Source: an uncultured archaeon
GTDB taxonomy: Archaea; Asgardarchaeota; Thorarchaeia; Thorarchaeales; CAZPUN01
Reading direction: 5' to 3'
Assembly: GCA_964589775.1 (NCBI GenBank)
Contig: CAZPUN010000023.1
Coordinates: 2,135 to 66,134 of the forward strand
Length of the DNA stretch: 64,000 nt
Position 1 is the first letter of the stretch; each line of letters begins with the position of its first letter. Positions 1,387-61,308 of this stretch are shown piece after piece. The position numbers and the translations under genes were made by a program. The notes under the pieces are model-generated. The model was not told the DNA's origin. It was given only the letters and a program-made list of their open reading frames with translations, and ran no database searches.

Positions 1387-1418
1387 AATTGTTCTACCTT
1401 GTAAAATCTTTGAAGGAA

Positions 1419-1515: not shown

Positions 1516-1597
1516 ACTGATATTATCTGGTATCTAAAAAGTATTAAAAATTTTGTGAAGCGCCTTATTTTAAAAAAATGGAAGGGGACGTTGGAAC

Positions 1598-1972: not shown

Positions 1973-2152
1973 TGCTATCACTATCCACAATAAAATATAC
2001 TTTCAATTTTAAATATTTTGTCTGATACATTTCCATAAAAATACATATTTTTAAGTCTTTAGTTTCATTTTTGTAAATTACATGTGGTAATGTTTATAAG
2101 ATTGATAACAAATTTTCTAGCACGCTACTAAAGATAATTTAGGTGAGAAATT

Positions 2153-3449: not shown

Positions 3450-3460
3450 GAGGGTTATCA

Positions 3461-3919: not shown

Positions 3920-3927
3920 GTGAAAAT

Positions 3928-5996: not shown

Positions 5997-6435
5997 AATG
6001 GGCAGACTTGGATTTCTAAAAAGTATGTATCTGACATTTAAGCAGTTTTTCAGAAAGCCAGTCACAGTGTTATATCCTGAAGAGCGAATTCCCGATTTCT
6101 CACGATACCGTGGAATTCACTTATTAAATATGCAAAAATGCAAGGGTTGTAACCTATGTGGTATGGCTTGTCCTAACTTTGCCATTAAAATGGTTGAGCG
6201 ACTAAATCCAAAAACTGGTAAAATGTCCAAATATCCCGAGATCAATATGGCACGTTGTATGTTCTGTGGATTATGCGAAGATGCATGTCCATTAGATTGT
6301 TTGAAGCTCGGGGGAATATATGACTTTGCAACTGATTCATTTGAAGAATTAATATTTCCCCCTGAAAAACTAGCGGAGTTATGGGAACAAAGATTCGGTA
6401 CTCCCGCATTATTAGAATCAAAATCAAATGAGTAA
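5983..6435 (+). CDS. nuoI: NADH-quinone oxidoreductase subunit I (2x[4Fe-4S] ferredoxin, TYKY)
   Basis: CKGCNLCGMACP and CMFCGLCEDACP motifs. Confidence 0.9.
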   Translation: MEEYKMGRLGFLKSMYLTFKQFFRKPVTVLYPEERIPDFSRYRGIHLLNMQKCKGCNLCGMACPNFAIKMVERLNPKTGKMSKYPEINMARCMFCGLCEDACPLDCLKLGGIYDFATDSFEELIFPPEKLAELWEQRFGTPALLESKSNE

Positions 6436-7939: not shown

Positions 7940-7952
7940 GTGGTGGTACAGA

Positions 7953-10025
7953 ATGATCTTGGATTACTCTCCTATCCTGATATTCATGGTACCTTTAGTA
8001 GGTGCATTATTGGTACCTTTAGTTGGAAAATTACCAAGAAAAATCCTTGAAGGATATGCTATTACTGTAGCATTGATTTCTGCATTTCTTGGAGTCTATA
8101 TGTTACCATGGGCCATTGGTATGCAGCATCCCATTGTCATTCGGTTCGACTGGTTACCTGAATTTGGAATCAGTTTGGGCGTATACGCAGATCAACTTAG
8201 TCTATTCATGGCTGCAATGGTCTCATTTGTAAGCTCATTAATTGTAATTTACAGCAAGGACTACATGGCTGGAGACGAAGCATATGTCCGATATTACTTC
8301 TTCATATTGTTCTTCATTGGAAATATGCTCGGTCTAATTATGGCTGAAAACTTAGTATTGCTCTTCATGTTCTGGGAAGGCGTAGGTCTTTGCAGTTATG
8401 GACTCATTGGTTTCTGGAATAAAGATAATGAGAATGTACGCAGTGGTACTAAAGCATTCATAGTCACCCGTGCAGGTGATGTAGGTCTTCTTGCTGGAAT
8501 TATCATTATCTATCTACAAACTCATACACTTAGCTTTGTAGAGATGGAAGAAAATATTGGTGCTTTTGCCCAAGCACTTGGTGGCTCTATTACTTTGGTA
8601 GGGCTATTGTTATTCGCCGGTGCTGTTGGTAAATCCGCACAGTTTCCATTGAATATCTGGCTTCCTGAGGCTATGGCTGGTCCTACAACGGTATCTGCAT
8701 TAATTCATGCTGCTACAATGGTAAAAGCTGGTGTATATCTAATTGCCCGATTCTTGCCGATCTTCTTTGAAATAAAGGAGATTCTTATTGGCGGAATTGC
8801 TGCCTATGCATTGCAAGTAGAAAATATGTTTACTGTAATCGCTTGGGTTGGTGTATTCACCGCATTTATGGCAGGCTCTATGGGCATGGCTGCACGTGAG
8901 CTCAAGAAGGTTCTTGCATTCTCAACAGTCAGCCAACTTGGATACATGATGATGGGACTCGGCGTAGCTGGATTAATGATGGAAAGCACCGAAGGATATT
9001 TCGCATCTGTATTTCATATGACTGCCCACATGCTATTCAAGGCACTCTTATTCTTATCTGCGGGTGCCGTCATTCACGCAGTGCATACAAAAGATATGTT
9101 TGAAATGGGTGGTCTAAAGGATAAGATGCCCCTAACATACAAAGTGATGCTTATTGGTGCGTTATCTCTATCTGGTATTCCTCCGCTTGCCGGTTTCTTC
9201 AGCAAAGAGACACTATTTGATGTTGTCTGGATTTATGCTGGTGAAGTTGGAACCATGGGTCTCATAATGTTCATCATTGCTGTAGTTGCTGCAATATTCA
9301 CATTCTTCTACAGCTTGAGAATGATTGGCGTTGTCTTCTTTGGAAAACCAAGTGAAATTGTTGAAGAGCACCATGCACATGATCCTCATATCTACATGAA
9401 ATTCTCCTTAGTTGTACTTGCTGCATTAACTTTAATCAGTGGATTCTTTGGACCATGGATCGAAGCCTACTTAATTCCAAGTGTTCATATGCCCGGTGTT
9501 ATTGATGGCCTTATGATGCTGTTTGGTAAAGTATTTACACCAATCAGTATGATGGTCTTGGGTACAATCTTAGTTGTAGGCGGTGTTCCGGGATACTTCA
9601 TATATATCAAGCGTAGTTGGAACGCAGAAAAGATTGGTAAATCAAAGCTTCACACCTTCCTATACAACCGCTGGTATTGGAATACAATTCTCGTCAAAAT
9701 ATTTGTCAATGGATTCCATGCCTTATCTCGTGGTATCTTTAATACCTTTGAAAAGGCTCTAGATAAACTAAATGATGCCATTGTCAGTGGTAACATAAAG
9801 TTATCTCATGGTATGGAGAAATTTGATAGAAAAGGCGTGGATGGTGTGGTCAATGGCATTGTATCTGCAAGTGTTGCAGGTTCAAAAGCTGTTGATAAGA
9901 CACAGACCGGTAACGCACAAACCTACCTGCAGGTTGGCTTAATCGGTCTTGTAATACTGTTAATAACATTGTCGTTGATACTTAACGACCAAATTACATT
10001 CTTAATTCAATGGCTGGTGAGCTAA
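7953..10025 (+). CDS. nuoL: NADH-quinone oxidoreductase subunit L (ND5/MrpA-like)
   Basis: 690 aa; WLPEAMAGPTTVSALIHAATMV motif and the long C-terminal extension typical of NuoL. Confidence 0.85.
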   Translation: MILDYSPILIFMVPLVGALLVPLVGKLPRKILEGYAITVALISAFLGVYMLPWAIGMQHPIVIRFDWLPEFGISLGVYADQLSLFMAAMVSFVSSLIVIYSKDYMAGDEAYVRYYFFILFFIGNMLGLIMAENLVLLFMFWEGVGLCSYGLIGFWNKDNENVRSGTKAFIVTRAGDVGLLAGIIIIYLQTHTLSFVEMEENIGAFAQALGGSITLVGLLLFAGAVGKSAQFPLNIWLPEAMAGPTTVSALIHAATMVKAGVYLIARFLPIFFEIKEILIGGIAAYALQVENMFTVIAWVGVFTAFMAGSMGMAARELKKVLAFSTVSQLGYMMMGLGVAGLMMESTEGYFASVFHMTAHMLFKALLFLSAGAVIHAVHTKDMFEMGGLKDKMPLTYKVMLIGALSLSGIPPLAGFFSKETLFDVVWIYAGEVGTMGLIMFIIAVVAAIFTFFYSLRMIGVVFFGKPSEIVEEHHAHDPHIYMKFSLVVLAALTLISGFFGPWIEAYLIPSVHMPGVIDGLMMLFGKVFTPISMMVLGTILVVGGVPGYFIYIKRSWNAEKIGKSKLHTFLYNRWYWNTILVKIFVNGFHALSRGIFNTFEKALDKLNDAIVSGNIKLSHGMEKFDRKGVDGVVNGIVSASVAGSKAVDKTQTGNAQTYLQVGLIGLVILLITLSLILNDQITFLIQWLVS

Positions 10026-11477
10026 ATGGAGCTAGGACTAATATCAATACTCTTACTAATTCCCTTGATTGCCGCCGTAATTGACTATGCTGGCGGTGTG
10101 AAGTCTCCCAAATTTGCCAAGTACTTTGCAATACTCACCACGACAGTAGTATTCATCTATAGCATGTATTTCCTTATGGTGTTTGATCCTACTAATGGTG
10201 GTATGCAGCTAATAGAAAGTTATGAATGGATGCCTGCATTTGGATTAACATTCTCTGTTGGTCTTGATGGCATAAGTCTTCCATTACTATTGTTGGGTAC
10301 CTTCATGACTATGATTGCAACAGCTGCATCACCTTGGATGATTCACCATCATGAAGCAGAATATTATGGATTGATGCTATTATTTGAAGTAGGACTGTTA
10401 GGTGTCTTTGTCAGCACAAATCTAGTATTGTTCTATGTGTTCTGGGAGCTAGTCCTAGTTCCCATGTTCTTCATGATTGCAATTTGGGGAGGCCCTACAA
10501 GAAAATATGCTGCAATGAAATTCTTCATCTTTACGCATGTAGGTAGTGTGTTGATGCTTGTCAGTATCATGGGCTTTTACTTCTTCTCAAGTCCTCATAC
10601 TTTCAACATTCTACAATTATCCAATGTATTTCCAGCTGATTTGCAGTTCTGGCTTGCATTGGGTATATTCTTCGGTGCTGCATTCAAGCTACCTGCAGTC
10701 CCCTTCCATACATGGTTACCCGACGCACATGTGCAAGCCCCCAGTCCTGCAAGTGTACTACTTGCCGGTGTTCTGCTTAAGATGGGTGGTTATGCATTCA
10801 TTCGTCTTGGTATCGGCTTAGTTCCTCAAGGTATGCTACAACTTGCACCATTCCTTGCGATCATGGGTGTGATCGGTGTATTCTATGCTGCTTATGCGGC
10901 AATGGGTCAAAAGGACATGAAGAAATTAATTGCATTTTCAAGTATTAACCACATGAGCTTTGTACTACTTGGTGTTGCTGCCGGTACTGTAATGGGTATA
11001 GTTGGTGCAGTATTCCAAATGGTCAGCCATGGTGTAATCATCGGTATGCTCTTCCTTATTGCTGGAATAATTCAGCATCATGCGGGTACTCGTGATATTC
11101 CAGTGCTTAAGGGACTTGGCAATTCACTACCAAAGCTTAGTCTTCTATTAATATTTGCATCATTTGCATCATTTGCTGCTCCACCGTTAAGCGGTTTCAT
11201 TGCTGAATTAACTGTATTAATTGCAGCGTTAGTTGTATTCCCACAAATTTGGATTACTGTATTTGGTGCTGCAGTTACCACTGGTCTTTTCCTGTGGCTG
11301 ATTATTAGAACCATTTACAGTGAGCCTGATGAGCATACTGTGAAAGTATCTCCTATTAGCAAATGGGAGTTACTTCCTGTTGCAATCTTAGTAATACCAA
11401 TTGTCCTGCTGGGTCTATTCCCAGGGCTCTTGTTCGAATTGATCAAGGCTACTGCAGGACTGTTAGCGTTTAGGTAA
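10026..11477 (+). CDS. nuoM: NADH-quinone oxidoreductase subunit M (ND4)
   Basis: 483 aa; WLPDAHVQAPSPASVLLAGVLLKMGGY motif. Confidence 0.8.
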   Translation: MELGLISILLLIPLIAAVIDYAGGVKSPKFAKYFAILTTTVVFIYSMYFLMVFDPTNGGMQLIESYEWMPAFGLTFSVGLDGISLPLLLLGTFMTMIATAASPWMIHHHEAEYYGLMLLFEVGLLGVFVSTNLVLFYVFWELVLVPMFFMIAIWGGPTRKYAAMKFFIFTHVGSVLMLVSIMGFYFFSSPHTFNILQLSNVFPADLQFWLALGIFFGAAFKLPAVPFHTWLPDAHVQAPSPASVLLAGVLLKMGGYAFIRLGIGLVPQGMLQLAPFLAIMGVIGVFYAAYAAMGQKDMKKLIAFSSINHMSFVLLGVAAGTVMGIVGAVFQMVSHGVIIGMLFLIAGIIQHHAGTRDIPVLKGLGNSLPKLSLLLIFASFASFAAPPLSGFIAELTVLIAALVVFPQIWITVFGAAVTTGLFLWLIIRTIYSEPDEHTVKVSPISKWELLPVAILVIPIVLLGLFPGLLFELIKATAGLLAFR

Positions 11478-11480
11478 GAG

Positions 11481-12908
11481 GTGACGATAATGGCTGCAGA
11501 ATATCTATCTCTTATGCCGTTTATCACATTGTTCGGATTTGCATTAGTTTCACTTATATTCGGTGGTATCAGGAAATGTAAGATTGCTATCGGCTGGTCT
11601 GCAGTAGGTGTAATCTTAGCATTCTGGCAAACATTATTTGGTGGGTACTTTAATGGTGCCCATCTATTCGATGATACAATAGTAATGGATGCTTTCTCCC
11701 AATTCTTTGTACTACTCTTCCTTGGTGTTGCATTTTTGATCTTAGTAGCTGCACCATACGAAATGAAAGCACGACCTGAGTTTGCTGCTTTAGTCTTGAT
11801 TGCAACGATCGGTATGTCTATGGTTGCACTTGCAAACGATTTATTGGTGCTATTTGTATCATGGGAACTAATGAGCATATCAACATACGCTTTGGCTGCT
11901 CTTGGAAAAGACAAAAAGTCCACTGAAGGTGGTATCAAATACTACCTTTACGGTATCGTTGCATCTGGTTTCATTTTGTACGCTATCTCATTGCTATATG
12001 GTATCACCGGTACTACAAATCTTACTGCAATTGTTAATTTCGTTGCAGCAAATGGTAATTTAGCTTTACCTGTCGTAGGTCTCAGTGCATTCATATTCAT
12101 ATTGGGCTTTGGATACAAGATGGGTGTTGTTCCCTTCCATATGTGGATTCCAGATGCATATGAAGGCGCGCCGTCTGTAATTGCAGGTCTGCTAGCTGGT
12201 GGCTCAAAGAAAGCAAGCATCGCTGCTATGTTCAGAATAATCGTTGCTGCATTACTTGTAATTAACTTTGGCTGGACATTTACGATTGCAATAATCGCTA
12301 CAATCACCATGACCTTTGGAAACTTCTTAGCTTTGAGTGAACCAAAAGTTTCCAGAATGCTTGCATATTCCTCAATCACACAAGTTGGATACATATTAAT
12401 TGGTCTTGCAATTGCAACTACAATTGGAGTAGCAGGTGCACTATTCCAAGCTCTCACACATGCCGTCATGAAAAGTGCTGCCTTTATTGCTGCCGGAGTT
12501 GTTATTTACAAACTATCCTTAAAAACAGTGGATGACTATAATGGTTTAGTAAAGCGCATGAAGTTTGTATCCTTTGCATTGGCTATAATGTTGTTATCTC
12601 TCGCTGGTGTTCCACCGCTCGCTGGATTTATCAGTAAGTTCATTCTTTTCTCGGCAGCAGTTGATGCCGGACTTGTTTGGCTGGCCGTTGTCGGAGTGCT
12701 TAACAGTGCATTCTCCTTAGGTTATTATCTGCGTTTGATCAAAAACATGTTCGTAGAAGATGCACCTGAGGATGCTACGCCTGTCAAGGTTCCCTATGGA
12801 GTCACTATTTCATTAGCTCTTGCAGTAATTGTAATCATAGTTATGGGAATCTATCCCGCACCATTCTATGACTACATAATTCGTGCTGCACAAAGTATAA
12901 TTCCGTAA
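11481..12908 (+). CDS. nuoN: NADH-quinone oxidoreductase subunit N (ND2)
   Basis: 475 aa; WIPDAYEGAPSVIAGLLAGGSK motif; last gene, followed by a T-rich terminator. Confidence 0.8.
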   Translation: MTIMAAEYLSLMPFITLFGFALVSLIFGGIRKCKIAIGWSAVGVILAFWQTLFGGYFNGAHLFDDTIVMDAFSQFFVLLFLGVAFLILVAAPYEMKARPEFAALVLIATIGMSMVALANDLLVLFVSWELMSISTYALAALGKDKKSTEGGIKYYLYGIVASGFILYAISLLYGITGTTNLTAIVNFVAANGNLALPVVGLSAFIFILGFGYKMGVVPFHMWIPDAYEGAPSVIAGLLAGGSKKASIAAMFRIIVAALLVINFGWTFTIAIIATITMTFGNFLALSEPKVSRMLAYSSITQVGYILIGLAIATTIGVAGALFQALTHAVMKSAAFIAAGVVIYKLSLKTVDDYNGLVKRMKFVSFALAIMLLSLAGVPPLAGFISKFILFSAAVDAGLVWLAVVGVLNSAFSLGYYLRLIKNMFVEDAPEDATPVKVPYGVTISLALAVIVIIVMGIYPAPFYDYIIRAAQSIIP

Positions 12909-18417: not shown

Positions 18418-19919
<1,502 letters not shown>

Positions 19920-26093: not shown

Positions 26094-26426
26094 ATGATGG
26101 AATTAAGTATGTTACTGCAGGTAAATATTATAATACTTGCAGCACTATGTTTCATTGGGGTATTATACTTACTAGCGCGTAAAATGGCGCCTCCACCAAG
26201 AACTTCTGGTGCTGCAGTTGAGCCGTATGGCTCAGGTGAAAAAGTAAAAATTGGAAAGCTAAAGTTCAGGGCACAAATGCTGAATTTTGTATTCATGTTT
26301 ATTGTATTTGAGTCGTTGATATTATCAATTCTTGCATGGCAAGTAAATCCACTTGCTGTTAGTGTATATCTAATTGTGACCCTGTTCGCATTGCTTGCTA
26401 CAAAGCAATGTACTACAGTTTGTTAG
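26094..26426 (+). CDS. NuoA-like small membrane subunit (second complex-I-like module)
   Basis: VEPYGSGE...FIVFESLILSILAW follows the NuoA pattern (PYECG..FDxE..FLFPWA) in divergent form. Confidence 0.55.
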   Translation: MMELSMLLQVNIIILAALCFIGVLYLLARKMAPPPRTSGAAVEPYGSGEKVKIGKLKFRAQMLNFVFMFIVFESLILSILAWQVNPLAVSVYLIVTLFALLATKQCTTVC

Positions 26427-26429
26427 GAG

Positions 26430-26882
26430 TTGATATTAGTGGTTCTTGCAAAAATTGCAAAATGGGCTAGGTTAAAGTCACCTTGGGTTATCCACATGAA
26501 TAGTGGTAGCTGTAATGGGTGTGATATTGAAATAGTAGCGGCATTGACTCCTCGTTATGATCTTGAACGCTTTGGTGTCAAATTAATGGGTAGTCCTAGG
26601 CACGCAGATATTATGCTTCTTACTGGTACTATGACTGCACAGGCTAGAGAACGAGCAATTCGTGTTTATGAGCAGATGGCCGAGCCAAAGTTTGTTGTTG
26701 CAATTGGAAGTTGCGCTTTAAGTGGCGGTGTTTTTGCAGGTAGTTACAATACATTAAAAGGAGCCGATAAAGCTTTACCAATTGCTGCGTATGTGCCTGG
26801 TTGTCCACCTAAGCCTGAAGCAATTATTCAAGCCGTAGCAGCCCTATTAGAAAAGCTCGAAAAAGGTGAAAGCAATGAGTGA
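26430..26882 (+). CDS. NuoB-like / group-4 [NiFe]-hydrogenase-type small subunit
   Basis: GSCNGCDIEI ... GSC ... PGCPPKPE. The four proximal-cluster Cys ligands are arranged as in Mbh/Ech/Hyc small subunits rather than the CCxxE arrangement of NuoB. Confidence 0.8.
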   Translation: MILVVLAKIAKWARLKSPWVIHMNSGSCNGCDIEIVAALTPRYDLERFGVKLMGSPRHADIMLLTGTMTAQARERAIRVYEQMAEPKFVVAIGSCALSGGVFAGSYNTLKGADKALPIAAYVPGCPPKPEAIIQAVAALLEKLEKGESNE

Positions 26883-27354
26883 TCAAAATTTAGCAGCTGA
26901 AAATGAAATAGTATCCATGCTGAAGAAATATTTGGGTGACGACTTAAAGGACATTAATATTCAGCGTCGCCATAGAGTGTGGGCTGAGATTCCCGTTTCA
27001 AAACTAAGAGATACACTCCAATTCTTAATTGATAATCGCAACTTGTACTATTTATCCACGATAAGTGGAGTTGACATGAAAGATCATTTTGAAATGCTAT
27101 ATCATTTGTTCTTGCATGAAGATAAGATTGAGTTGACCCTTACAGTAAAATTACCCCATGATAACCCTTCAGTCCCCACGATTATTGATCTATTCCCTGG
27201 TGCTGATATGGCTGAACGTGAAGCACATGAAATGTTTGGTATTAATATTGAGGGTCGTGATGAAGAACTAAAGCATGTGGAACTTCCAGATACGTGGCCC
27301 GAAGGTCAATATCCACTCAGAAAGGATTGGAGTGGAAATAATGAGGAAGCCTGA
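26866..27354 (+). CDS. NuoC-like (30 kDa) subunit
   Basis: AEREAHEMFGINIEG...LPDTWPEGQYPLRKDW. Confidence 0.75.
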   Translation: MKAMSDQNLAAENEIVSMLKKYLGDDLKDINIQRRHRVWAEIPVSKLRDTLQFLIDNRNLYYLSTISGVDMKDHFEMLYHLFLHEDKIELTLTVKLPHDNPSVPTIIDLFPGADMAEREAHEMFGINIEGRDEELKHVELPDTWPEGQYPLRKDWSGNNEEA

Positions 27355-27364
27355 GGTGAAGTAA

Positions 27365-28417
27365 ATGGAGATTATTATGGAATCCCTTATGTTTTTCTTG
27401 CAAGTATTGATATTTCCCGGAATATTCTTCCTGACATTTGTTGCTCTATTGTGGGAATGGGTAGACCGTAAATTTTACGCTAAATTACAGAATAGAGTAG
27501 GGCCTTATTTCACAGGTAAGAAAGGGTTCCTACAGCCTCTTGCCGATTTCTTAAAATTATTGTCTAAGGAAGATCTAACTCCTGAACAGAGTAACAAGCG
27601 TGGGTTCAAAGCAGCTCCAATTGTAATCGCAATTACAATTCTATTCTTATTGATGTTTATACCCATCACTGGTGCAAAAGGAATTATTTCATTTGAAGGC
27701 GACCTTCTATTTGTTTTGTTTGGGTCTTCATTGATCATGGCTGTAATTATGCTTTCTGGATGGTTTTCATCAAGTCCTTTTGCTATTGCGGGTGGTACTC
27801 GTACCGGATTGCTTATGATTGCTTATGAATTGCCATTAATTATTTCCTTACTAACTCCTGCAGTTATCGTCGGCAGTCTAAATATATCCACAATTATCAC
27901 GTATCAACTAACTCACGGCTTACCATTTATTGCAATATTTCCAATAATGTTTGGATTTATAATTTATGTCATCGCATTAGAAGCAGAACTAGAACGAGTG
28001 CCATTCGATGTTTCACATGCTGAAACTGAAATTGTTGCAGGTTGGAAAGTAGAATATTCTGGTAAAAAACTGGCATTGCTCTCGATGGTTTCAGATCTCG
28101 AACTAGTGTTTGGCGCAGGTATTGCAACAGCTATATTCTTAGGCGGCCCCTTCTTGTTTGAATTTATTCCACTTGATTGGGCTCAGTCTATTGCTACTCT
28201 TGCGGCTACCACATACTTTGGATTACTGTATTATCCTCTAGTATTCCTGTTCAAGTCTTTCTTGATAATATTAATACTAAGCTTGTTTAGAGCTCTAATG
28301 GCTCGTCTAAGAATTGACCAAATTATAAATGCGTCATGGAAAATTTTACTTCCTCTGGCAATTTTGGTGCTATTACTAGTACATTTGCCGAGTGTATTAG
28401 CATTATGGGGGCTATAA
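27365..28417 (+). CDS. NuoH-like membrane subunit
   Basis: VGPYFTGKKGFLQPLADFLKLL and AELERVPFD motifs. It directly follows the NuoC-like gene, with no NuoD-like gene between. Confidence 0.8.
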   Translation: MEIIMESLMFFLQVLIFPGIFFLTFVALLWEWVDRKFYAKLQNRVGPYFTGKKGFLQPLADFLKLLSKEDLTPEQSNKRGFKAAPIVIAITILFLLMFIPITGAKGIISFEGDLLFVLFGSSLIMAVIMLSGWFSSSPFAIAGGTRTGLLMIAYELPLIISLLTPAVIVGSLNISTIITYQLTHGLPFIAIFPIMFGFIIYVIALEAELERVPFDVSHAETEIVAGWKVEYSGKKLALLSMVSDLELVFGAGIATAIFLGGPFLFEFIPLDWAQSIATLAATTYFGLLYYPLVFLFKSFLIILILSLFRALMARLRIDQIINASWKILLPLAILVLLLVHLPSVLALWGL

Positions 28418-28418
28418 T

Positions 28419-28787
28419 ATGTGTCCAGTTCCTGGTAAGATGATTGGTGAATTGCTAAGGCATGCTTTCAAGAAGAGCGCAACAACTTCATATCCTTTGT
28501 CAAAGGATGAAGTCAATATTCCCCAAGATTTACGTGGCAAATGGGAATTGTATTTGGACAAATGTATTGGATGTAGTCTGTGTGAGCGCGTATGTCCATC
28601 ATTTGCCATAGTCATGGTTGAATGCCGTGAGGGTGAAACTACAAAGACAGGAAAGCGTCCAATTTGCCACATTGATAAATGTGTATTTTGCGCTCAATGT
28701 GAAGAGACATGTCCAACAAAAGCAATAAAATTAACACAAAACTTTGAGCTCGCGTTATTCAATCGTGAGAATGGCGTAATTGAGTAA
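28419..28787 (+). CDS. NuoI-like 2x[4Fe-4S] ferredoxin subunit
   Basis: CIGCSLCERVCP and CVFCAQCEETCP. Confidence 0.8.
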   Translation: MCPVPGKMIGELLRHAFKKSATTSYPLSKDEVNIPQDLRGKWELYLDKCIGCSLCERVCPSFAIVMVECREGETTKTGKRPICHIDKCVFCAQCEETCPTKAIKLTQNFELALFNRENGVIE

Positions 28788-29812: not shown

Positions 29813-30190
29813 TTGTCAACGAGAAATGAAATACTCTTAAATATACTCAAGGAACTTGAAAAAAGCTCACGTGGTCAAGTTGAAGCAAGTGCTATTATAT
29901 CCACACAAGGACTTCCTATTAGTTCTGCAAATCTAGATAATGTAGATGAAGGTGTAGTTGCAGCTATGGCTGCTGCAATTCTTGCAGTATCAGAGCGCGC
30001 TACAGCAGAGTTAAATCGCGGGCAGTTCAATAGAGTCCTTGTAGAAGGCGAGAATGGTTACATAATTATTGCTGGTGCGGGTTCTGAAGCAATTCTTGTA
30101 GTTTTGGCAAATAAAAAAGCCAATCTCGGATATATCTTCTTAATTATGACTCGATTAAGTACCGAAATTGAAAAAACCTTAAGAGAATAA
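29813..30190 (+). CDS. Roadblock/LC7 (MglB-like) domain protein
   Basis: 125 aa; pattern GLPISS...VAAMAAAIL...VLVEGENGYIIIAGAG typical of the roadblock family. Confidence 0.6.
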   Translation: MSTRNEILLNILKELEKSSRGQVEASAIISTQGLPISSANLDNVDEGVVAAMAAAILAVSERATAELNRGQFNRVLVEGENGYIIIAGAGSEAILVVLANKKANLGYIFLIMTRLSTEIEKTLRE

Positions 30191-40937: not shown

Positions 40938-41498
40938 TTATGGTTTATACCACTGGAATGCATAATATGCGACTTCACCGTTTTCTTTTACAGTTGCTAC
41001 AACGAATCTTTTTCTTACTGTAGTTGCAAGACGTCCTGCTCTAACGATATCAATTGGTTGAACTCCGATCGCTTTTGGATGTACATGTACCATAAATGGT
41101 GCATGATCTATTCCCGGTCCGTACTCGTAGATGGCGAAGTCGGTTCCAAATTTAAGTCCCGGTCTTACTACGTATCCTGCTTTTCTGAGATCTTTATATA
41201 CAATATATCGCTCTTCAAAATGAGGCACATTTTCTTCTGCTATTTTTTTTAGTGTATCTATATCCACAATTTTTGAATTTTCGCTATCATATACTTCAAT
41301 TCTGTTTTCTTCTATAAGATAGCATGCTTCTATTAATGATAATTCGAGAGGTCTTTGAAAATCGAAATTTTTGGGCTTTCTAATACCTACTGGTAATCCA
41401 TAAAATCCACTAGCATAGAGTGTCGATGCGTCTTCAATGTTCCACACTATTATTCTAGTACCTATTAGTTCCGCTCTTATTTTTTTATTATCGCTCAT
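40938..41498 (-). CDS. endA: tRNA-splicing endonuclease (EndA), short ~186-aa catalytic-subunit type
   Basis: Catalytic-domain motif LRKAGYVVRPGLKFGTDFAIYEYGPGIDHAPFMVHVHPK with the conserved Tyr/His/Lys. gaggaac RBS before MSDNKK. Confidence 0.8.
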   Translation of the reverse strand: MSDNKKIRAELIGTRIIVWNIEDASTLYASGFYGLPVGIRKPKNFDFQRPLELSLIEACYLIEENRIEVYDSENSKIVDIDTLKKIAEENVPHFEERYIVYKDLRKAGYVVRPGLKFGTDFAIYEYGPGIDHAPFMVHVHPKAIGVQPIDIVRAGRLATTVRKRFVVATVKENGEVAYYAFQWYKP

Positions 41499-41511
41499 CT
41501 GTGGGTTCCTC

Positions 41512-42171
41512 TTATGCCATATATGCAAGAGCAAGTATTAATACATTTTCAGCGGAGTCTTCTGCATAGTTTGCAATCTCTTCCATCGCATTTATGAAAT
41601 CTTTGAATTGCATCAAGACTTTTAATGGAATATCCATTTTGTATATATCATGGAGAATTTCTCGTTGCATGTTATCTAGTTGTTTTTCAATATCTCTTAC
41701 GACATCAGAAATTTCTATCGCTTTATTGTTATTTGTTGTGAGCATAATTGTTGATTCTCTCAGCTTTGCAACTTCTTTTTGGAGAAGATCTCCGTACGTT
41801 AATATTTTTTCTGCAAAATCTCCTGTTGGGGTCCACATATCTAGTAGCAATGAAAGATTGTATCCTGCGATTTCGGCGCCGTCTATTAATTTATCGTTGT
41901 TTAAAACGCCTCTCATGAAATCTTCTCTAAGTATTAGTCCTGTGGCTTTTGATAAATCTACAAGTATTTGTTTTTTAAGACGATTTCCTTTTTCTTCTAG
42001 ATCTGTTAGTTTCTTAAGGTGTTCTTCGATTTTCTTACCATTGTGTATCCATTCATCGATTATTTGTATGAGTTCATTTACGGCTTGAGTACTATATCTT
42101 GAATGTTCTTTAATTAGTTCCATTATTCTTGTGTTTTCTGAAGAGCGATATTTTGATTCGTCATACGCCAC
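41512..42171 (-). CDS. DUF47/PhoU-like (TIGR00153) family protein
   Basis: All-helical 219 aa with the PhoU-like repeat pattern ...ELIKEHSRYSTQAVNELIQIIDEW... Confidence 0.5.
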   Translation of the reverse strand: MAYDESKYRSSENTRIMELIKEHSRYSTQAVNELIQIIDEWIHNGKKIEEHLKKLTDLEEKGNRLKKQILVDLSKATGLILREDFMRGVLNNDKLIDGAEIAGYNLSLLLDMWTPTGDFAEKILTYGDLLQKEVAKLRESTIMLTTNNNKAIEISDVVRDIEKQLDNMQREILHDIYKMDIPLKVLMQFKDFINAMEEIANYAEDSAENVLILALAYMA

Positions 42172-49342: not shown

Positions 49343-49392
49343 TGCAAAATCTTTAATTATAACTATCTGAATTCTATAAATAGGTGACTAAT

Positions 49393-49617
49393 TTGTGCTT
49401 AGCAGTACCTGGTGAAGTTGTGTCTATTGACGGAGATCGTGCCGAAGTAGACTTCGGTGGTGTTAAAAAAACAGTGATTGTAAGTCTAATTGATGACTTA
49501 AAGGTTGGAGATTATGTGATTGTCCATACTGGTTATGCTATTGAAAAGTTGCGAAAGGAAGAAGCGTTAAAAACTTTAAAACTATGGGACGCTATTGATG
49601 AAATAGTAAATCAATAG
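49393..49617 (+). CDS. hypC: [NiFe]-hydrogenase maturation chaperone HypC/HybG-like
   Basis: TTG start after aggtga RBS gives MCLAVPGEVVSIDGDRAEVDFGGVKKTVIVSLIDDLKVGDYVIVHTGYAIEKL. This is the invariant MC N-terminus and OB-fold core of HypC. Confidence 0.75.
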   Translation: MCLAVPGEVVSIDGDRAEVDFGGVKKTVIVSLIDDLKVGDYVIVHTGYAIEKLRKEEALKTLKLWDAIDEIVNQ

Positions 49618-54921: not shown

Positions 54922-55420
54922 TCTAAGGTCGCTCCTTGTTCCTTTTGATTTAAATAGAAGAAACATCTATTAACAGTGTTTATATTTTGCTTATAAATTT
55001 TCACGTTAATATATCATTTTTTATATCTTTATATCTATTTTTTAGATTTATTCGGTAAATATTTTATACTTTTGTGATGATTACAATGTTTAGTGGGCTT
55101 TTTATGTTATGTTTGTAAGATTAATTACGTGATTTTTAATTTATACTTTTTATAATAGCGCCAAAAATCATTTTTAATAAATTTTTGATTACAAAATGTA
55201 TCTTATTATTTTATTATCTGCTATTTTATTTTTTAATTTTCTTTATATTGTATATATTTATTCAATGCTTACTATCTGCATATTATTTCGTTCTAAAACT
55301 GACATTTTATTAATGAATGCGAACGCCAAAACGAAAGATTTAATGATATGAACAACAATCTTTTAACTAAAAAGAAACACAATTTGATTGTGTAATAAAA
55401 AAACACGGGGAACGCGGACT

Positions 55421-55690
55421 ATGGAAATATTGGAACTCATACAAATTGGGTTCATGGTACTTACAGTAGTGTTCGTCATAGTTGCCCTTGAATATAAAGA
55501 CATAATATATTCGTTAGTTGCCTTTGCAGCGGCTAATGCCTCACTGGGTATATTGTTCTTATTCCTGGGTGTTGTATTTGTAGCATTAATTCAATTCAGT
55601 GTGTTTGCAGTTGCAATCGTTGTACTTGCTTTGGCAACATTAGGTATGATCGGAAATCATGACGAACGATTTGATGAACCCAGAAAATAA
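55421..55690 (+). CDS. small membrane subunit, NuoJ N-terminal-half/MbhD-like (Mrp-type module)
   Basis: Three TM helices; IQFSVFAVAIVVL resembles the NuoJ core. First gene after a ~450-bp AT-rich spacer. Confidence 0.4.
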   Translation: MEILELIQIGFMVLTVVFVIVALEYKDIIYSLVAFAAANASLGILFLFLGVVFVALIQFSVFAVAIVVLALATLGMIGNHDERFDEPRK

Positions 55691-55705
55691 GAGGTGACTA
55701 GGCTA

Positions 55706-55990
55706 ATGAAATATAAAATTGTGTCTGCCATATTATGTATTTTGATCCTAATACTGATATTGCCAGTTATACTTAATTTTCCGCTTTTTCAATTAGGATC
55801 GCCAGTAACGACCATACCTGTAGAAAATTTTGGTCAAATTGGTCATTTACTGGGTGAGTATCTTTGGACATATCGCGCTCCAGATGTGATTGCACAAGCT
55901 TTTATTATATTTGCAGCATCATGGGGCATTTCTGCACTATTTAGAGGTTCTGAGGAGGATTCAACATGTCAATGTTCAACTTCTACTTAA
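55706..55990 (+). CDS. small membrane subunit, MbhE/MrpB-like
   Basis: gaggtga RBS then MKYKIVS...; two TM segments plus a soluble tail; position equivalent to the second NuoJ-like piece in Mbh clusters. Confidence 0.35.
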   Translation: MKYKIVSAILCILILILILPVILNFPLFQLGSPVTTIPVENFGQIGHLLGEYLWTYRAPDVIAQAFIIFAASWGISALFRGSEEDSTCQCSTST

Positions 55991-56289
55991 TTACTGCAGC
56001 TGTTTTGTACTTTCTAGGTTTCTATGGTCTAGCGAGTACAAAAAACATGATAAAAATTGTAATATCTCTGGAAGTACTCGTTATGGCTGTAAATCTGAAT
56101 TTCATAACATTTGCAGCATTTGCTAATGGTGGTGTTGTTGGACTTGTGGATCCATTTGTACAGACCTTCGTTGTGATCTCTATTTTCATCGGTGGTGCAA
56201 TAGCTGCAATAGCATTATCTCTGATTTGGAACGCTTACAAGCATTATGGCACACTAGATGTTAGAGAGTTGAGCAGATTGAAAGAATAG
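55966..56289 (+). CDS. NuoK/MrpC-like subunit
   Basis: 107 aa; three TM helices; LEVLVMAVNLNFITFAAF pattern of the NuoK/MnhC family. Confidence 0.7.
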   Translation: MSMFNFYLITAAVLYFLGFYGLASTKNMIKIVISLEVLVMAVNLNFITFAAFANGGVVGLVDPFVQTFVVISIFIGGAIAAIALSLIWNAYKHYGTLDVRELSRLKE

Positions 56290-56301
56290 GGAGGCTAGGT
56301 T

Positions 56302-58248
56302 ATGATTGAAGGTGCACCATATTTAGTATTTGTAATTCCGTTACTTGGCGCGCTCATTACTCCCCTTACTGCAAAAATTCATCCCAAGGTACGAGACTTT
56401 ACTGCAGTTATTCTTGTATTTTTGTCTGGTGTAATGGCATTATCCATGCTTCCAGATGTACTTGCAGGATACACTGGCGAAATATCTGTACTTTGGATGC
56501 GAATATCCCCTACTGTAGTAATTGAAGCGGGAGTTATCGTTGATCCATTAAGCGTATTTCTAGCATTAATTGCAACATGCATCGGCGCGCTCATTATGCT
56601 TTACAGTTTAGGTTATATGAAGGGCGATAAATCCTTAACCCGTTATTGGTTCTGGATGCAATTGTTTATTGGTGGAATGGTTCTGCTTGTTATGGCCAAC
56701 AACTTCCTGCAGTTATTTGTAGGATGGGAAGTTGTAGGTATGTGTTCGTATGCGCTGATTGGATTTTGGTATGATAAGACCGAACCAAGTCCTGTTCCTG
56801 ATTATCAATTCGAAGGCCAATACAACTCATATTGCGGAATGAAAGCTTTTATCGTCACACGAATTGGTGATATTGGTCTTCTCAGTGCAATATTGATTAT
56901 CTTTGCAGTTAGCGGAACCTTCAATTTTCATCAATTGGAATCTAATGGATTCGGTTGGATGACCAACCTTGTACATCTTGGTATATTGCCGATTGTACTA
57001 GTATTATTGTTTGGTGGTGCTATCGGGAAGTCTGCACAATTTCCGCTTCATGTATGGTTACCTGAAGCAATGGCAGGTCCTACTACAGTATCTGCATTAA
57101 TTCATGCGGCAGCAATGGTAAAGGCTGGTGTTTACTTAGTCGCTAGAGTTGTACCAATCTTTATGGCCGCCGCAGAAGCTGGTGTGATTGGAGTAGATGT
57201 TTTCTTTACAACAGTAGCTTGGATTGGTGCATTTACTGCATTTCTAGCAGCATCTATGGCACTTGTACAGACAGAAATTAAGAAAGTTCTAGCATACTCG
57301 ACTGTATCTCAACTAGGATACATGTTTCTTGCACTTGGAGTATCCGGATTAATTGCAGAAAGTACGGTTGCATACTTTGCGGGGTTATTCCACCTACTTA
57401 GTCACGCATTGTTCAAGGCACTCTTGTTCCTTGGTGCTGGTGCAGTTTTGCACTCAGTTCATTCTAAAGATATGCGTGATATGGGTGGTCTTCGTAAAGA
57501 AATGAAGATTACATTTGCCACATTTCTTGTAGGTGCCTTCTCTCTCAGTGGAATTCCTCCATTTATGGGATTCTTCAGTAAGGAATTGATCCTTGATGCA
57601 CTATGGGAAAGTGGTCACACAATATTATTCTTGATCGCTGTAATCACTGCATTGTTTACAGTATTCTATTCATTCAGGATGGTCGGTCTTACATTCTTTG
57701 GTGAAAAGAGTGAACATATCAAGAAAATGGAAGCTGAAGGCAAGCATATACACGAAGCTCCTGCTGTAATGTGGATCCCCCTTGTAATTCTTGCCGGTTT
57801 CAGTGTGATTGGTGGATTCTTACAACCCAATATTGTACAGTATTTCCACCTTGAGCATGCCAGTGAAATTCCATTCCTACAAATTGGCATTCCTACATTG
57901 GCAACTGCATTGGTTGTGATCGGTGGTTTAGTTCCTGCATGGTGGCTGTACATTGCTAGAAAGAGTGATCCTGCAAAATTCACAATTAAACCAATTCAAA
58001 CATTCTTAGTCAACAGATGGTATATCGATGCATTCTACAAGAAAGTGTTTGTAGGTGGAACATTAAAGATCGCCTCTGGAATTAATTATCTTGAGAAGCA
58101 GTTTAACAGGCTCAATGTTGCTGTTGGAAATGGTATGAGCCGTGTATCTAGGGGCTTTGCAAAGACACAAACAGGAATCCTAAGCGTTAATATTCTTGGA
58201 ATGCTGCTTGGGATTGTTCTATTCCTGTTGTTCTTGCTGTATCTGTAG
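56302..58248 (+). CDS. NuoL/MrpA-like antiporter subunit
   Basis: WLPEAMAGPTTVSALIHAAAMVKAGVYL motif; 648 aa with C-terminal extension. Confidence 0.8.
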   Translation: MIEGAPYLVFVIPLLGALITPLTAKIHPKVRDFTAVILVFLSGVMALSMLPDVLAGYTGEISVLWMRISPTVVIEAGVIVDPLSVFLALIATCIGALIMLYSLGYMKGDKSLTRYWFWMQLFIGGMVLLVMANNFLQLFVGWEVVGMCSYALIGFWYDKTEPSPVPDYQFEGQYNSYCGMKAFIVTRIGDIGLLSAILIIFAVSGTFNFHQLESNGFGWMTNLVHLGILPIVLVLLFGGAIGKSAQFPLHVWLPEAMAGPTTVSALIHAAAMVKAGVYLVARVVPIFMAAAEAGVIGVDVFFTTVAWIGAFTAFLAASMALVQTEIKKVLAYSTVSQLGYMFLALGVSGLIAESTVAYFAGLFHLLSHALFKALLFLGAGAVLHSVHSKDMRDMGGLRKEMKITFATFLVGAFSLSGIPPFMGFFSKELILDALWESGHTILFLIAVITALFTVFYSFRMVGLTFFGEKSEHIKKMEAEGKHIHEAPAVMWIPLVILAGFSVIGGFLQPNIVQYFHLEHASEIPFLQIGIPTLATALVVIGGLVPAWWLYIARKSDPAKFTIKPIQTFLVNRWYIDAFYKKVFVGGTLKIASGINYLEKQFNRLNVAVGNGMSRVSRGFAKTQTGILSVNILGMLLGIVLFLLFLLYL

Positions 58249-58259
58249 GAGGTGCAGAG

Positions 58260-59774
58260 ATGGTTCTATTTAACATACCCATTATTTCACAATATCCTTT
58301 GATGATTACTATTGCGTTACTGGTACTCGGTGCCATTCTTGCTGCGGTAAGCGGACGGAAATCCTCAAAGAGTGCAGCATCGGTTTCAGCACTATTTATA
58401 CTATTTGCGTTAATTATCAATTTCATACTGTTATATGATATATTGCAAGACCCCCAGACCGGATTTCTTAGCGGCCCATATCCGTGGCTAAGTATTTTCG
58501 ATGTAAATCTTGGCTTCTGGGCTGATGGCTTAAGTTTGCCTATAGTGGTTATGATTCTTGGTCTTAGCTTTGTTGCAATACTTTACAGTCATATATTCAT
58601 GAAGGAAATGAAGCGTCCTCAGACTTATTATAGTTTGATGATGCTCTTCATTGCAGCAATGATCGGAACATTATACTCTACAAACTTGTTGCAATTTTTC
58701 GCATTCTATGAATTCATGCTCTTTCCAAGTACTGCAATATTGATCTGGTATGGTACATCCGAGAATTATGAAGAACGTAAAAAGAATGGTTTGAAGTTCT
58801 TTGTTTGGACCAATTTTGGTGCATTAGCCTTAATGGTTGGATTAGCTGCAATCATTCTTGTTACGGGTTCTACAGACTTACTTTCTATTGCATGGAGTCT
58901 CGGTACAGTTCCCGCAAATCTTATGGGTCTTGTACAAATTGGAGCATTACTAATTGTTCTCGGATTTGGTGTAAAGATGGCAATATTCCCACTCCATATG
59001 TGGGCACCCACAACGTACAAAGAAGCACCATTACCGTTACTATTGCTTCTAAGTGCTGCAATGACAAAAACTGCAGCTTATGGAATTGCACGTATTGCTA
59101 TTCCATTATTTGCACCAAACTTGGTATCATATACTAATGGATTACTTGTAGTTTCATTAATTACAATGTATTATGGTGCTCTGGCAGCATTAGCGCAAAA
59201 GGACCTCAAAATGATGTTGGCTTACTCATCAATTTCTCAACTTGGGTATCTAATGTACGGTTATGCTACATTGAATATCTATGGTGTTGAAGGTGGTGTA
59301 TTCCACATACTCAATCATGGTCTTTTGATGGGTATTATGTTTGTAGCTGCTGGAGTCATAAAAATGCAGACTGGAACACTTGAGTTTGATAAACTCGGTG
59401 GATTAGCAAAGAAAATGCCAGTTACTGCAGTAGCATTTGTAACTGCTGCATTAGCTTTAGCCGGAACTCCCCCATTAAACGCATTCGCAAGTGAGTGGCT
59501 TATCTTTGAAGGGAGTGCTGCAGCAGGACACTTCTGGCTAACAGTATTTGCTATTATCGCAACTGGTCTGACCGCTGGATATTATCTATGGGCTGTCCGC
59601 CGTATATTCTTTGGTGTAGTTCCAGATGAGCTATCTGATGTCACTGATGGTCCCAAGCCATTATTATACGCTATGTTAATACTGACAGCTGTGATTGTGC
59701 TGATCGGTATCTTTCCGAACAGCATATTACACTACATACAGCCGTTTCTAACGGCTATTGTCGGAGGAGGTTAA
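58260..59774 (+). CDS. NuoM/MrpD-like antiporter subunit
   Basis: 504-aa polytopic protein of the NuoM/N/MrpD family (PLHMWAPTTYKEAPLP). Confidence 0.8.
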   Translation: MVLFNIPIISQYPLMITIALLVLGAILAAVSGRKSSKSAASVSALFILFALIINFILLYDILQDPQTGFLSGPYPWLSIFDVNLGFWADGLSLPIVVMILGLSFVAILYSHIFMKEMKRPQTYYSLMMLFIAAMIGTLYSTNLLQFFAFYEFMLFPSTAILIWYGTSENYEERKKNGLKFFVWTNFGALALMVGLAAIILVTGSTDLLSIAWSLGTVPANLMGLVQIGALLIVLGFGVKMAIFPLHMWAPTTYKEAPLPLLLLLSAAMTKTAAYGIARIAIPLFAPNLVSYTNGLLVVSLITMYYGALAALAQKDLKMMLAYSSISQLGYLMYGYATLNIYGVEGGVFHILNHGLLMGIMFVAAGVIKMQTGTLEFDKLGGLAKKMPVTAVAFVTAALALAGTPPLNAFASEWLIFEGSAAAGHFWLTVFAIIATGLTAGYYLWAVRRIFFGVVPDELSDVTDGPKPLLYAMLILTAVIVLIGIFPNSILHYIQPFLTAIVGGG

Positions 59775-59778
59775 ATAA

Positions 59779-61308
59779 ATGTTCGAAGAATTATTCCCGG
59801 TTGAACTGCTCCCCGTACTTCCAATAATCATTCCATTAGTTGCAGCATTAATTGTAGCTCTTGTAGGGTCAATATCTCGCCGCTCATGTGTTGGTAATAT
59901 TAGAAATGCCTTAGCGGTCCTCGGCTTCATTGTTACATTATATTCTGCATATCTACTTGCAAAGCGTGTAATCGACTATGGAATACAGACCTATGTCTAT
60001 AATTCGAATGCGCCTCCTCTTGGAGTTGTATTTGTCGCAGATATGTTCTCTGTATTCCTTGTGGTTATCTTTTCACTTATGGGTACTATAGTTTCAATTT
60101 ATTCATTAGGCTATATGAAACATGATACCGGTCTAACACAATACTACACATTGCTCCTCGTACTTATTGGGGCTATGAATGGTGTTGTTCTTGTTGGAGA
60201 CTTATTCACACTATACGTATTCTATGAACTAATGTCAATTGCAAGTTACGTCTTAGTTGCCTTTAGAAAAGACAATTGGGAACCAATAGAAGCCGGATTC
60301 AAATATCTTGTAATGTCCTCTGCAGGTTCAACATTAGTGTTGCTTGCAATGAGCTACTTGTATGGTATGATGGGATCATTGAATCTTGGCTATCTTGCAA
60401 ATGCAATGCTTCACACGACACCACAACCAATCTTCTATGTGCTAATCGCTTTGATTATTGCAGGATTTGGCGTGAAAGCCGCTATTGTTCCGTTCCATTT
60501 CTGGTTGGCTGATGCTCATCCTGCAGCTCCCAGCGGTATAAGTGCATTACTTTCCGGTATTGTAATAAAAACTGGATTATACGGCATTATTCGTGTAGGT
60601 GTATTAGTATTTCCAATTGCACTTTACAACTGGCCATTATTGTTGTCAATATTTGCAGTAATTACAATAACTTCTGGAAACCTATACGCGTTAATGCAGA
60701 AAGATCTTAAGCGATTGTTAGCATTTTCAAGTGTTGCACAGATCGGTTGGATTATGTTGGCATTTGGTACTGGAACACAATTTGGTTTTGCAGCAGGTAT
60801 TTTCGGAATAGCAAATCACGCAATTGTCAAGGGACTTCTCTTCTTAAATGCTGGTGCAATTATCCATGCCATTGGTTCAAGAAAACTTGATGATATGGCC
60901 GGTCTTGGTAAGAAATCGCCCATTATTGGAGCCTTTGTTGCGATTGGATTCCTTTCACTAATGGGTGTTCCACCGATGACTGGTTTCTGGACTAAACTAT
61001 TGATGTTCTTATCTGTAGTTTCAGTAGGTGGCATATATCTAGTATTTGCAGTGATATTCCTTCTTAACGCTGCAGTGGTTGTAGTATATTATCTCAGAGT
61101 TCTATTCAAAATCTGGTTCAGTGAGCCTGCAGAAACCATGGAGATTGAAGAAGGTCCAACTAAGAGCATGATATTTGCATTGGCAGCTCTATCTCTTCTA
61201 ACAATTATTTTGGGTATCTATCCCGAGTTCCTATGGCACTTTGCAAATAGTGCAGCCAGTGCATTAACAAATCTTACCCAATACATTAATTTAGTAATGT
61301 CCCCATAA
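59779..61308 (+). CDS. NuoN/MrpD-like antiporter subunit
   Basis: 509 aa; FHFWLADAHPAAPSGISALLSG motif. Confidence 0.8.
   Translation: MFEELFPVELLPVLPIIIPLVAALIVALVGSISRRSCVGNIRNALAVLGFIVTLYSAYLLAKRVIDYGIQTYVYNSNAPPLGVVFVADMFSVFLVVIFSLMGTIVSIYSLGYMKHDTGLTQYYTLLLVLIGAMNGVVLVGDLFTLYVFYELMSIASYVLVAFRKDNWEPIEAGFKYLVMSSAGSTLVLLAMSYLYGMMGSLNLGYLANAMLHTTPQPIFYVLIALIIAGFGVKAAIVPFHFWLADAHPAAPSGISALLSGIVIKTGLYGIIRVGVLVFPIALYNWPLLLSIFAVITITSGNLYALMQKDLKRLLAFSSVAQIGWIMLAFGTGTQFGFAAGIFGIANHAIVKGLLFLNAGAIIHAIGSRKLDDMAGLGKKSPIIGAFVAIGFLSLMGVPPMTGFWTKLLMFLSVVSVGGIYLVFAVIFLLNAAVVVVYYLRVLFKIWFSEPAETMEIEEGPTKSMIFALAALSLLTIILGIYPEFLWHFANSAASALTNLTQYINLVMSP

Follow-up and report, generated by a model that had tools for sequence, protein, structure and literature searches.

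What enzyme does an operon of antiporter-like subunits serve when it stands apart from the redox subunits of complex I? The question is raised by a 64,000-nucleotide stretch of DNA from an uncultured archaeon of the Thorarchaeales (Asgardarchaeota; assembly GCA_964589775.1, contig CAZPUN010000023.1, positions 2,135 to 66,134 of the forward strand), hereafter the window, in which a Pfam scan of the open reading frames (ORFs) found three complex-I-related loci. Locus 1 (1598-12908) has subunit A on the minus strand, followed by J-K-B-C-D-H-I and then four antiporter-like genes; locus 2 (26094-28787, plus strand) reads A-B-C-H-I, with D missing between C and H; and locus 3 (55421-61308, plus strand), with which we are mainly concerned, is a six-gene operon, J1-J2-K-L-M-N, at 26.6 kb from locus 2. 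A first-pass annotation, made from the sequence alone, had described locus 3 as a detached Mrp/Mbh-type antiporter module complementing locus 2. We consider it probable, from gene order and homology, that locus 3 is the membrane-arm operon of an Asgard complex-I-like enzyme with a group 4 membrane-bound [NiFe]-hydrogenase as its ancestor, and that locus 2 is its redox and connecting module. Enzymes of this kind, made of a hydrogenase module and a proton-translocating membrane module, have been described in Asgard archaea (Valentin-Alvarado et al. 2024; Appler et al. 2024), and the Freyarchaeum genome CP147778.1, used for comparison below, is the one whose two-module enzyme was modelled (Valentin-Alvarado et al. 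2024, PMC11291895).

Pairing of the two operons across Asgard archaea

Synteny in related genomes, a comparison that the first-pass annotation had itself suggested, speaks for the pairing. In an Asgardarchaeia contig (L018) both modules lie in a single operon, B-C-D-H-I-J1-J2-K-L-M-N-A, and ten of the eleven genes with a hit are matched best by their counterpart in locus 2 or locus 3 of the window or, in the case of D, by the Thorarchaeota D used as query; the exception is the M gene, which best matches a 503-aa protein of locus 1. The modules are 3.5-4 kb apart in Freyarchaeum deiterrae (CP147778.1, L017) and in a Baldrarchaeon (L006). In Thorarchaeota they are found as separate operons more than 10 kb apart: one thorarchaeote (L002) carries the six-gene module standing alone, and antiporter genes are missing from the examined flanks of the Thorarchaeota-type A-B-C-D-H-I loci (10 kb on both sides for L012 and L013 only). 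Separate operons are thus common to Thorarchaeota and the window's lineage and not the outcome of a local insertion event. "Detached" is therefore the wrong word for locus 3, and of its supposed insertion into a glycosyltransferase island what stands is that glycosyltransferase genes border it on both sides.

The two operons also share a pattern of relatedness. Homologs of the locus 3 L protein and of the locus 2 H protein rank by lineage in roughly the same order, with Thorarchaeota at 53-60% identity and Odinarchaeia, Baldrarchaeia, Asgardarchaeia and the Frey/Jord group at about 41-52%. For the proteins studied in general the nearest homologs are from Asgard archaea, Thorarchaeota first, and closer relatives at 88-96% identity occur in recent metagenome-assembled genomes; an exact look-up of the window's L and H proteins found neither on record. 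Locus 2 consists of NuoA-, NuoB- (hydrogenase small subunit), NuoC-, NuoH- and NuoI-like genes by Pfam and is orthologous to the Asgard A-B-C-D-H-I operons, and both modules are orthologous to those of Freyarchaeum, Baldrarchaeia, Asgardarchaeia and Thorarchaeia. A neighbor-joining tree without support values, the other comparison suggested earlier, places the locus 3 L, M and N with the subunits of the Thorarchaeota module, and L and N also with those of other Asgard modules, leaving the closest locus 1 counterparts outside: L groups with Thorarchaeota, Asgardarchaeia and Freyarchaeum, M is sister to the Thorarchaeota M, and N groups with Thorarchaeota, Baldrarchaeia and Asgardarchaeia.

As locus 1 is complete by itself and the modules are linked in other Asgard archaea, locus 3 would be the membrane arm for locus 2, and linkage, congruent rankings and orthology all uphold this part of the earlier reading. 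Its count of complex-I core subunits holds as well, since with A, B, C, H and I in locus 2 the two loci together provide ten of the eleven, D alone being missing.

The six subunits

Family and structure matches agree with the initial listing of six membrane genes (two J-like halves, K, L, M and N). J1 (55421..55690, plus strand; 89 aa) is MbhD/MbsD-like and corresponds to the N-terminal half of NuoJ, i.e., transmembrane helices (TM) 1-3. It aligns to residues 1-90 of NuoJ from locus 1, sharing the Glu of TM1 and the motif of TM3, matches Pfam Oxidored_q3 at E 1e-5 (under the cut-off) and has MbsD (6u8y_D, E 5e-4) and MbhD as its best solved relatives. J2 (55706..55990, plus strand; 94 aa, two hydrophobic segments predicted) was harder to place, as single-sequence searches of the PDB, of Pfam to E 10 and of NCBIfam at the default cut-off of E 0.001 returned nothing. 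A profile of five orthologs matched MbhE (6cfw_E, E 0.004) and MbsE (6u8y_E, E 0.011) via YR..D, within the conserved motif W.YR..D...QA, and the position of the gene is identical in the Thorarchaeota, Freyarchaeum and Asgardarchaeia modules. It is thus an MbhE/MbsE-like protein of two helices, equivalent to the C-terminal half of NuoJ and to the N-terminus of MrpB. The J of locus 3 accordingly consists of two proteins, one MbhD-like (89 aa) and one MbhE-like (94 aa), with no single five-helix NuoJ. K (55966..56289, plus strand; 107 aa) is NuoK/MbhG/MrpC-like (Pfam Oxidored_q2, 2e-22), with an MrpC-type model as top NCBIfam match. Its TM2 Glu is present and its TM3 Glu is absent, likewise in all Asgard orthologs; the K of locus 1 has both.

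L (56302..58248, plus strand; 648 aa) is a full-length NuoL-type subunit whose C-terminal region comprises the lateral helix and a final anchor helix. It passes the NCBIfam cut-offs of both NuoL models (NF005141, 579.5 bits against 556; TIGR01974, 559.5 against 407.5) and aligns over residues 7-644 with NdhF (6hum_F, 2e-109) and over 11-647 with E. coli NuoL, lateral and anchor helices included. Against MrpA structures it reaches only 5e-70, in alignments confined to the N-terminal ~513-535 residues; against MrpA models it scores 260-340 bits for cut-offs of 920-1117, and the fused C-terminal MrpA domain is absent. M (58260..59774, plus strand; 504 aa) is of the NuoM/NdhD type, scoring 294.5 bits with TIGR01972 (NDH_I_M, cut-off 263.8) and aligning at full length with NdhD (6tjv_D, 8e-59), its best PDB match, and with Paracoccus NuoM. 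N (59779..61308, plus strand; 509 aa; Proton_antipo_M) is of the MbhH/MrpD/NuoN type: its best PDB match is MbhH (6cfw_H, 3e-87, full length), MbsH and MrpD come next, and it stays under all NCBIfam cut-offs, including that for NuoN (TIGR01770, 246.8 against 332.6). The TM5 Glu, TM7 Lys and TM8 Lys are present in all three proteins; L and N also have the TM12 Lys, and M has a NuoM-like HG.. motif in TM12. N is probably the proximal pump, adjoining J and K.

The operon thus reads as a mosaic: proximally it is of Mbh type (J1, J2, K and N), distally of complex I type (M, and L with its lateral helix). The label "Mrp/Mbh-type" suits J1, J2 and N and fails for L and M, which are of complex-I grade; membrane arm of an Asgard complex-I-like, hydrogenase-derived complex is a better one.

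Does the arm work alone, as an Mrp-like cation/proton antiporter without a redox module? The Mbh and Mrp affinities of N and K could be read in this way, as could the equivalence of J1 and J2 to the C-terminus of MrpA and to MrpB, and locus 3 is physically independent both here and in Thorarchaeota. However, the neighbouring ORFs scanned hold no MrpE/F/G or MbhA-C, the end-to-end match of the 648-aa L to NuoL and NdhF, over the NuoL cut-off and far under every MrpA cut-off, points elsewhere, the orthologs are co-operonic with the hydrogenase module in Asgardarchaeia, and locus 2 would be left without a membrane arm despite strong purifying selection. We regard a stand-alone antiporter as very unlikely. 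A classical Mrp operon with MrpE, MrpF and MrpG nearby, which the first-pass annotation had set against its own interpretation, is ruled out, given that none of these genes occurs in the six-gene operon, its flanks or the other window ORFs scanned and that L and M pass the NuoL and NuoM cut-offs.

Locus 1 as a self-sufficient complex

Locus 1 is self-sufficient: it encodes a J, a K and four antiporter-like subunits and so has no need of locus 3. Its set of complex-I-like genes is complete and unusually ordered, the antiporter-like proteins measuring 503, 690, 483 and 475 aa. The lateral helix of its NuoL has a 26-aa insertion relative to the L of locus 3, which fits an arm of four pump subunits; Chadwick and colleagues reportedly described in 2018 a "2M-type" complex I with a fourth pump subunit. 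The D protein of locus 1 is 35% identical to the Thorarchaeota D and lacks the NiFe cysteines, with ERACFLED and DVCPADLDR at the motif positions. By reading of the alignment it has a Phe at the equivalent of Tyr87 of quinone-type NuoD.

In cyanobacterial NDH-1, NdhD and NdhF paralogs are exchanged, and locus 3 might by analogy be an alternative arm that can replace the one in the locus 1 complex. Among solved structures L and M indeed come closest to cyanobacterial NdhF and NdhD, and the sole D in the window belongs to locus 1. Yet locus 3 encodes a J and a K as well, and these two, unlike exchangeable distal subunits, belong to the core junction with NuoH; locus 1, for its part, has J, K and four pumps of its own and a NuoL with a longer lateral helix. 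Moreover, the paralogs of the two loci are only 25-44% identical, and Thorarchaeota and other Asgard genomes pair the module with an A-B-C-D-H-I operon. We consider such swapping still less probable than a stand-alone antiporter.

Selection on the two operons

Relatives with 76-81% DNA and 84-96% protein identity were available for comparison (L003 and L004 for locus 2, L001 for locus 3). At synonymous divergence (dS) of about 0.4-2.4, which for several genes is near saturation and makes the ratios approximate, the ratio of nonsynonymous to synonymous divergence (dN/dS) lies between 0.01 and 0.12 in ten of the eleven genes that make up loci 2 and 3; L001 ends within M, of which 232 codons were compared, so N lies outside the comparison. 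The values are 0.02-0.05 for the genes of locus 2, 0.06 for J1, 0.12 for J2 and 0.01 for K, and the range equals that of neighbouring housekeeping genes. Cluster ligands are kept: the NuoB-like protein has its four Cys (SGSCNGCD, GSCALSGG and VPGCPP), and the NuoI-like protein has two CxxCxxCxxxCP motifs, CIGCSLCERVCP and CVFCAQCEETCP. The purifying selection, together with the retention of Fe-S ligands and pump residues, suggests that loci 2 and 3 encode a working machine. The GC content at third codon positions (GC3) of both loci differs little from that of locus 1 or of the rest of the window; for locus 3, its likeness to loci 1 and 2 argues against a recent horizontal import.

That the two operons are non-functional remnants left after loss of the large subunit is the least credible of the alternatives: D is gone from locus 2 in three assemblies and no D of the expected similarity could be tied to the window's lineage, but all genes are intact, the ten compared are under the constraint just described, Fe-S ligands and pump residues are kept, and even NuoC is conserved at a dN/dS of 0.02.

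Several points weigh against joining loci 2 and 3 in one working enzyme. As encoded in the window that enzyme is incomplete, since locus 2 lacks a D and the 64 kb hold none besides the non-NiFe D of locus 1; no upstream motif common to loci 2 and 3 rises above shuffled controls; the Asgardarchaeia M ortholog is nearer to the 503-aa protein of locus 1 than to the M of locus 3; the tree that separates the module subunits from their locus 1 counterparts carries no support values; and the near-saturated dS leaves the strength of selection approximate. Having weighed these, we still favor the pairing of loci 2 and 3.

The missing large subunit

In locus 2 the gene for D, the large subunit, is cleanly absent, with 10 bp between C and H. 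The corresponding D-less intervals span 26866-28417 in the window, 9514-11053 in L003 and 466-2005 in L004, and none of the three holds, between C and H, a [NiFe] large subunit with RxCGxC and DPCxxC motifs. D is thus missing from the locus in three assemblies (the window, GCA_053940065.1 and a contig of SRR32938001). A tblastn search of the window and of the close relatives' loci with the Thorarchaeota D and the locus 1 D as queries found only the locus 1 D and no remnant. By contrast, a D of about 406-410 aa is kept in all nine Thorarchaeota-type A-B-C-D-H-I loci, i.e., in the nearest outgroup (L019, with an H 60% identical) and in eight loci from a genome scan. In Thorarchaeota, Baldrarchaeia and Odinarchaeia, the lineages whose motifs were examined, the D between C and H has both NiFe motifs, RICGICS and DPCFSCTDR or close variants, and is a true hydrogenase large subunit and not a quinone-type D. 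The loss of D from locus 2 is real and, as the nearest outgroup and all Thorarchaeota loci keep the gene, confined to the window's lineage; a dS above 1 among the three assemblies makes it older than their divergence.

Where might the large subunit be? D is more conserved than H by 8-20 identity points in nine of ten calibrating pairs, so a D passed down vertically is expected to share about 65-72% identity with the Thorarchaeota D. A protein database search with the latter returned 28 Thorarchaeota-type clusters at 69-100% identity and then a gap down to 59%. Only two D proteins in the 65-72% range, P0265 and P0267, lack an obvious Thorarchaeota-type partner; they are 69-70% identical to the Thorarchaeota D and 88% to each other, and come from contigs of 11,688 bp (P0265) and 36,204 bp (P0267). 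Composition and clustering of the D hits singled out no candidate. A chimeric C+D+H query against GTDB genomes retrieved Thorarchaeota-type A-B-C-D-H-I loci only, with no genome of the window's lineage among them, and two scans of metagenomes, one using P0267 and the other a D alignment, were unproductive. Another hit, P0272, was discarded as the missing D because it belongs to an unrelated B-C-D-I-HycI operon. P0230, an H protein 43-45% identical to the Thorarchaeota H and to the locus 2 H, has a longest contig equal in length to that of P0265 (11,688 bp); it is not an ortholog of the locus 1 H.

The window itself offers a hint. A gene for a HypC/HupF-type [NiFe]-hydrogenase maturation chaperone (49384-49617; ..CLAVPGEVV..) is found 6 kb upstream of locus 3, behind a radical-SAM gene, is kept in L001, and implies a NiFe large subunit somewhere in the genome. 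To our knowledge, the sole role of NuoC is to bind D, and the strong conservation of NuoC, together with the nearby HypC gene, argues that a D-like partner persists. We rank first the possibility that D is encoded elsewhere in the genome, to which we give about an even chance. A complex without a large subunit of its own, which either borrows the non-NiFe D of locus 1 or works as a D-less Fe-S-to-membrane machine with a new acceptor site, seems unlikely. Taken singly, sharing of the locus 1 NuoD-like subunit with the locus 2/3 complex looks somewhat more doubtful than that, and a truly D-less complex more doubtful again.

A proposed architecture

We infer that the products of loci 2 and 3 assemble into one complex in the organism, the architecture of which can be sketched by homology to the solved structures of Mbh, Mbs and complex I. 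NuoH and NuoA of locus 2 would dock onto J1, J2 and K, from which the MbhH-like N, the NuoM-like M and the distal NuoL would follow in an outward row, with the lateral helix of NuoL clamping the three pumps. Electrons from a low-potential donor, most likely reduced ferredoxin, would enter the NuoI-like subunit, cross its two [4Fe-4S] clusters and reach that of the NuoB-like subunit, and turnover at a site beside NuoH would power ion translocation via the three antiporter-like subunits. The translocated ion is probably H+ rather than Na+, given the absence of MrpE/F/G- or MbhA-C-type genes.

Likeness to known systems

Among known systems, the Asgard group 4 enzyme is matched in the gene set and order of its membrane module (J1, J2, K and an L with the lateral helix HL, then further antiporter-like subunits) and in the Fe-S ligands of the small subunit and NuoI-like protein, which the window retains. 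The window departs from it in two respects: its hydrogenase-module operon lacks the NiFe large subunit gene kept in every other lineage examined, and its modules are 26.6 kb apart where elsewhere they are contiguous or neighbouring. In addition, locus 3 has three antiporter-like subunits against two in the visible part of the Baldrarchaeia module.

Mbh and Mbs of Pyrococcus furiosus (6cfw, 6u8y) contribute the closest solved relatives of J1 (MbhD/MbsD), J2 (MbhE/MbsE) and N (MbhH), and share a ferredoxin-linked group 4 hydrogenase ancestry. K, assigned from family models, is of the NuoK/MrpC type and has no TM3 Glu either. Unlike Mbh and Mbs, the locus 3 operon and its neighbours lack MbhA-C and MbhF (the Na+ unit of MrpE/F/G/B type), the lateral helix belongs to the NuoL-type subunit instead of being a separate MbhI, and there are two extra pumps, M and L.

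Complex I/NDH-1 resembles locus 3 in the row N-M-L and in the full-length alignment of L and M, which pass the NuoL and NuoM cut-offs. It differs in that the NuoJ of locus 3 is split in Mbh style, N is MbhH-like and under the NuoN cut-off, K lacks the second conserved Glu, and the redox partners are hydrogenase-derived, without NuoE/F/G and with no quinone-type D in the operon. With Mrp (Mnh/Pha/Sha), finally, locus 3 has in common a C-type small subunit and, in its A- and D-type subunits, the antiporter-like fold, and it differs in the lack of MrpE, F and G, in the lack of a fused MrpA C-terminal domain and in reaching no Mrp cut-off.

Operon layout and genomic neighbourhood

The six co-directional plus-strand ORFs of locus 3 occupy 55388-61308, with intergenic gaps of 4-15 bp, a 25-bp overlap of J2 and K, and Shine-Dalgarno-like motifs ahead of J2 (GAGGTGA) and L. 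J1 probably starts at ATG 55421 rather than at TTG 55388, and J2 probably at ATG 55706, downstream of the GAGGTGA motif; both starts agree with the gene calls in the 96%-identical relative L001, for which reason they are favored here. Besides the bordering glycosyltransferase genes, the flanks include a sugar kinase gene.

Between a GT2 glycosyltransferase gene on the minus strand and J1 lies a divergent intergenic region of 454 bp (54967..55420) with a GC content of 21.6%. The first-pass annotation was right about its very low GC and wrong to single it out: the regions upstream of loci 1 and 2 are similarly low (21% and 27%), so this is the ordinary intergenic composition of the genome, which rules out reading the spacer as an insertion scar. 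The region probably carries the promoter and leader of the operon. The ~110 bp proximal to J1 are nearly identical in L001, although synonymous sites of the flanking genes have diverged (dS about 0.4-2.4), and they contain a perfect palindrome, ACACAAT-TTG-ATTGTGT (55377-55393), into which the TTG 55388 proposed earlier falls and which could be an operator or a leader hairpin.

Further features concern the window at large and the relatives of the two operons. The GC content of the window is about 37%; an archaeal, stand-alone 16S rRNA gene (18418-19919) has 53-57%, and there is no 23S rRNA gene anywhere in the window. The 97-nt length of a tRNA-Ala(CGC) gene (1419-1515) points to an intron, and the window also encodes a tRNA-splicing endonuclease (40938-41534). 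Adjoining locus 2, a Roadblock/LC7-domain protein (29813-30190) is 100% identical at the amino acid level to that of a relative at a dS of 0.86 and is the most constrained gene measured. In two classes, LplA and glycine-cleavage H-protein genes sit between the two modules (5758-7310 in the Baldrarchaeia contig L006 and 5615-7190 in Freyarchaeum, L017), so this linkage is kept across both. In Odinarchaeia (L007) two adjacent group 4 hydrogenase-type clusters (1147-6681 and 7453-11461) each encode a fused C-D subunit of 583-588 aa.

Implications

The membrane module of locus 3 is ordinary for the family described in 2024, and the new element is the D-less operon pair. If D has merely been relocated, the locus is an ordinary member of that recently described family. 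If D is absent or shared, the locus would represent a new state for the superfamily of complex I and group 4 hydrogenases, for we know of no relative without the large subunit that forms the catalytic pocket: it would be a natural complex-I-type enzyme that dispenses with a catalytic-pocket subunit of its own, any sharing being between two complex-I-like enzymes. Either way, the window presents a natural deletion of a catalytic subunit gene in which none of the eleven partner genes is disrupted and purifying selection on the ten compared is strong.

The separate membrane-arm operon may also bear on how such enzymes are counted. Appler et al. (2024, bioRxiv 10.1101/2024.07.04.601786) reported "shorter membrane arms" in Asgard complexes, with their own caution that ORFs were possibly missing. 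With the membrane arm in a separate operon in several Asgard lineages, surveys of contiguous gene clusters can undercount pump subunits, and such undercounts affect the estimates of ion/electron stoichiometry that are used for the bioenergetics of the archaeal ancestor of eukaryotes.

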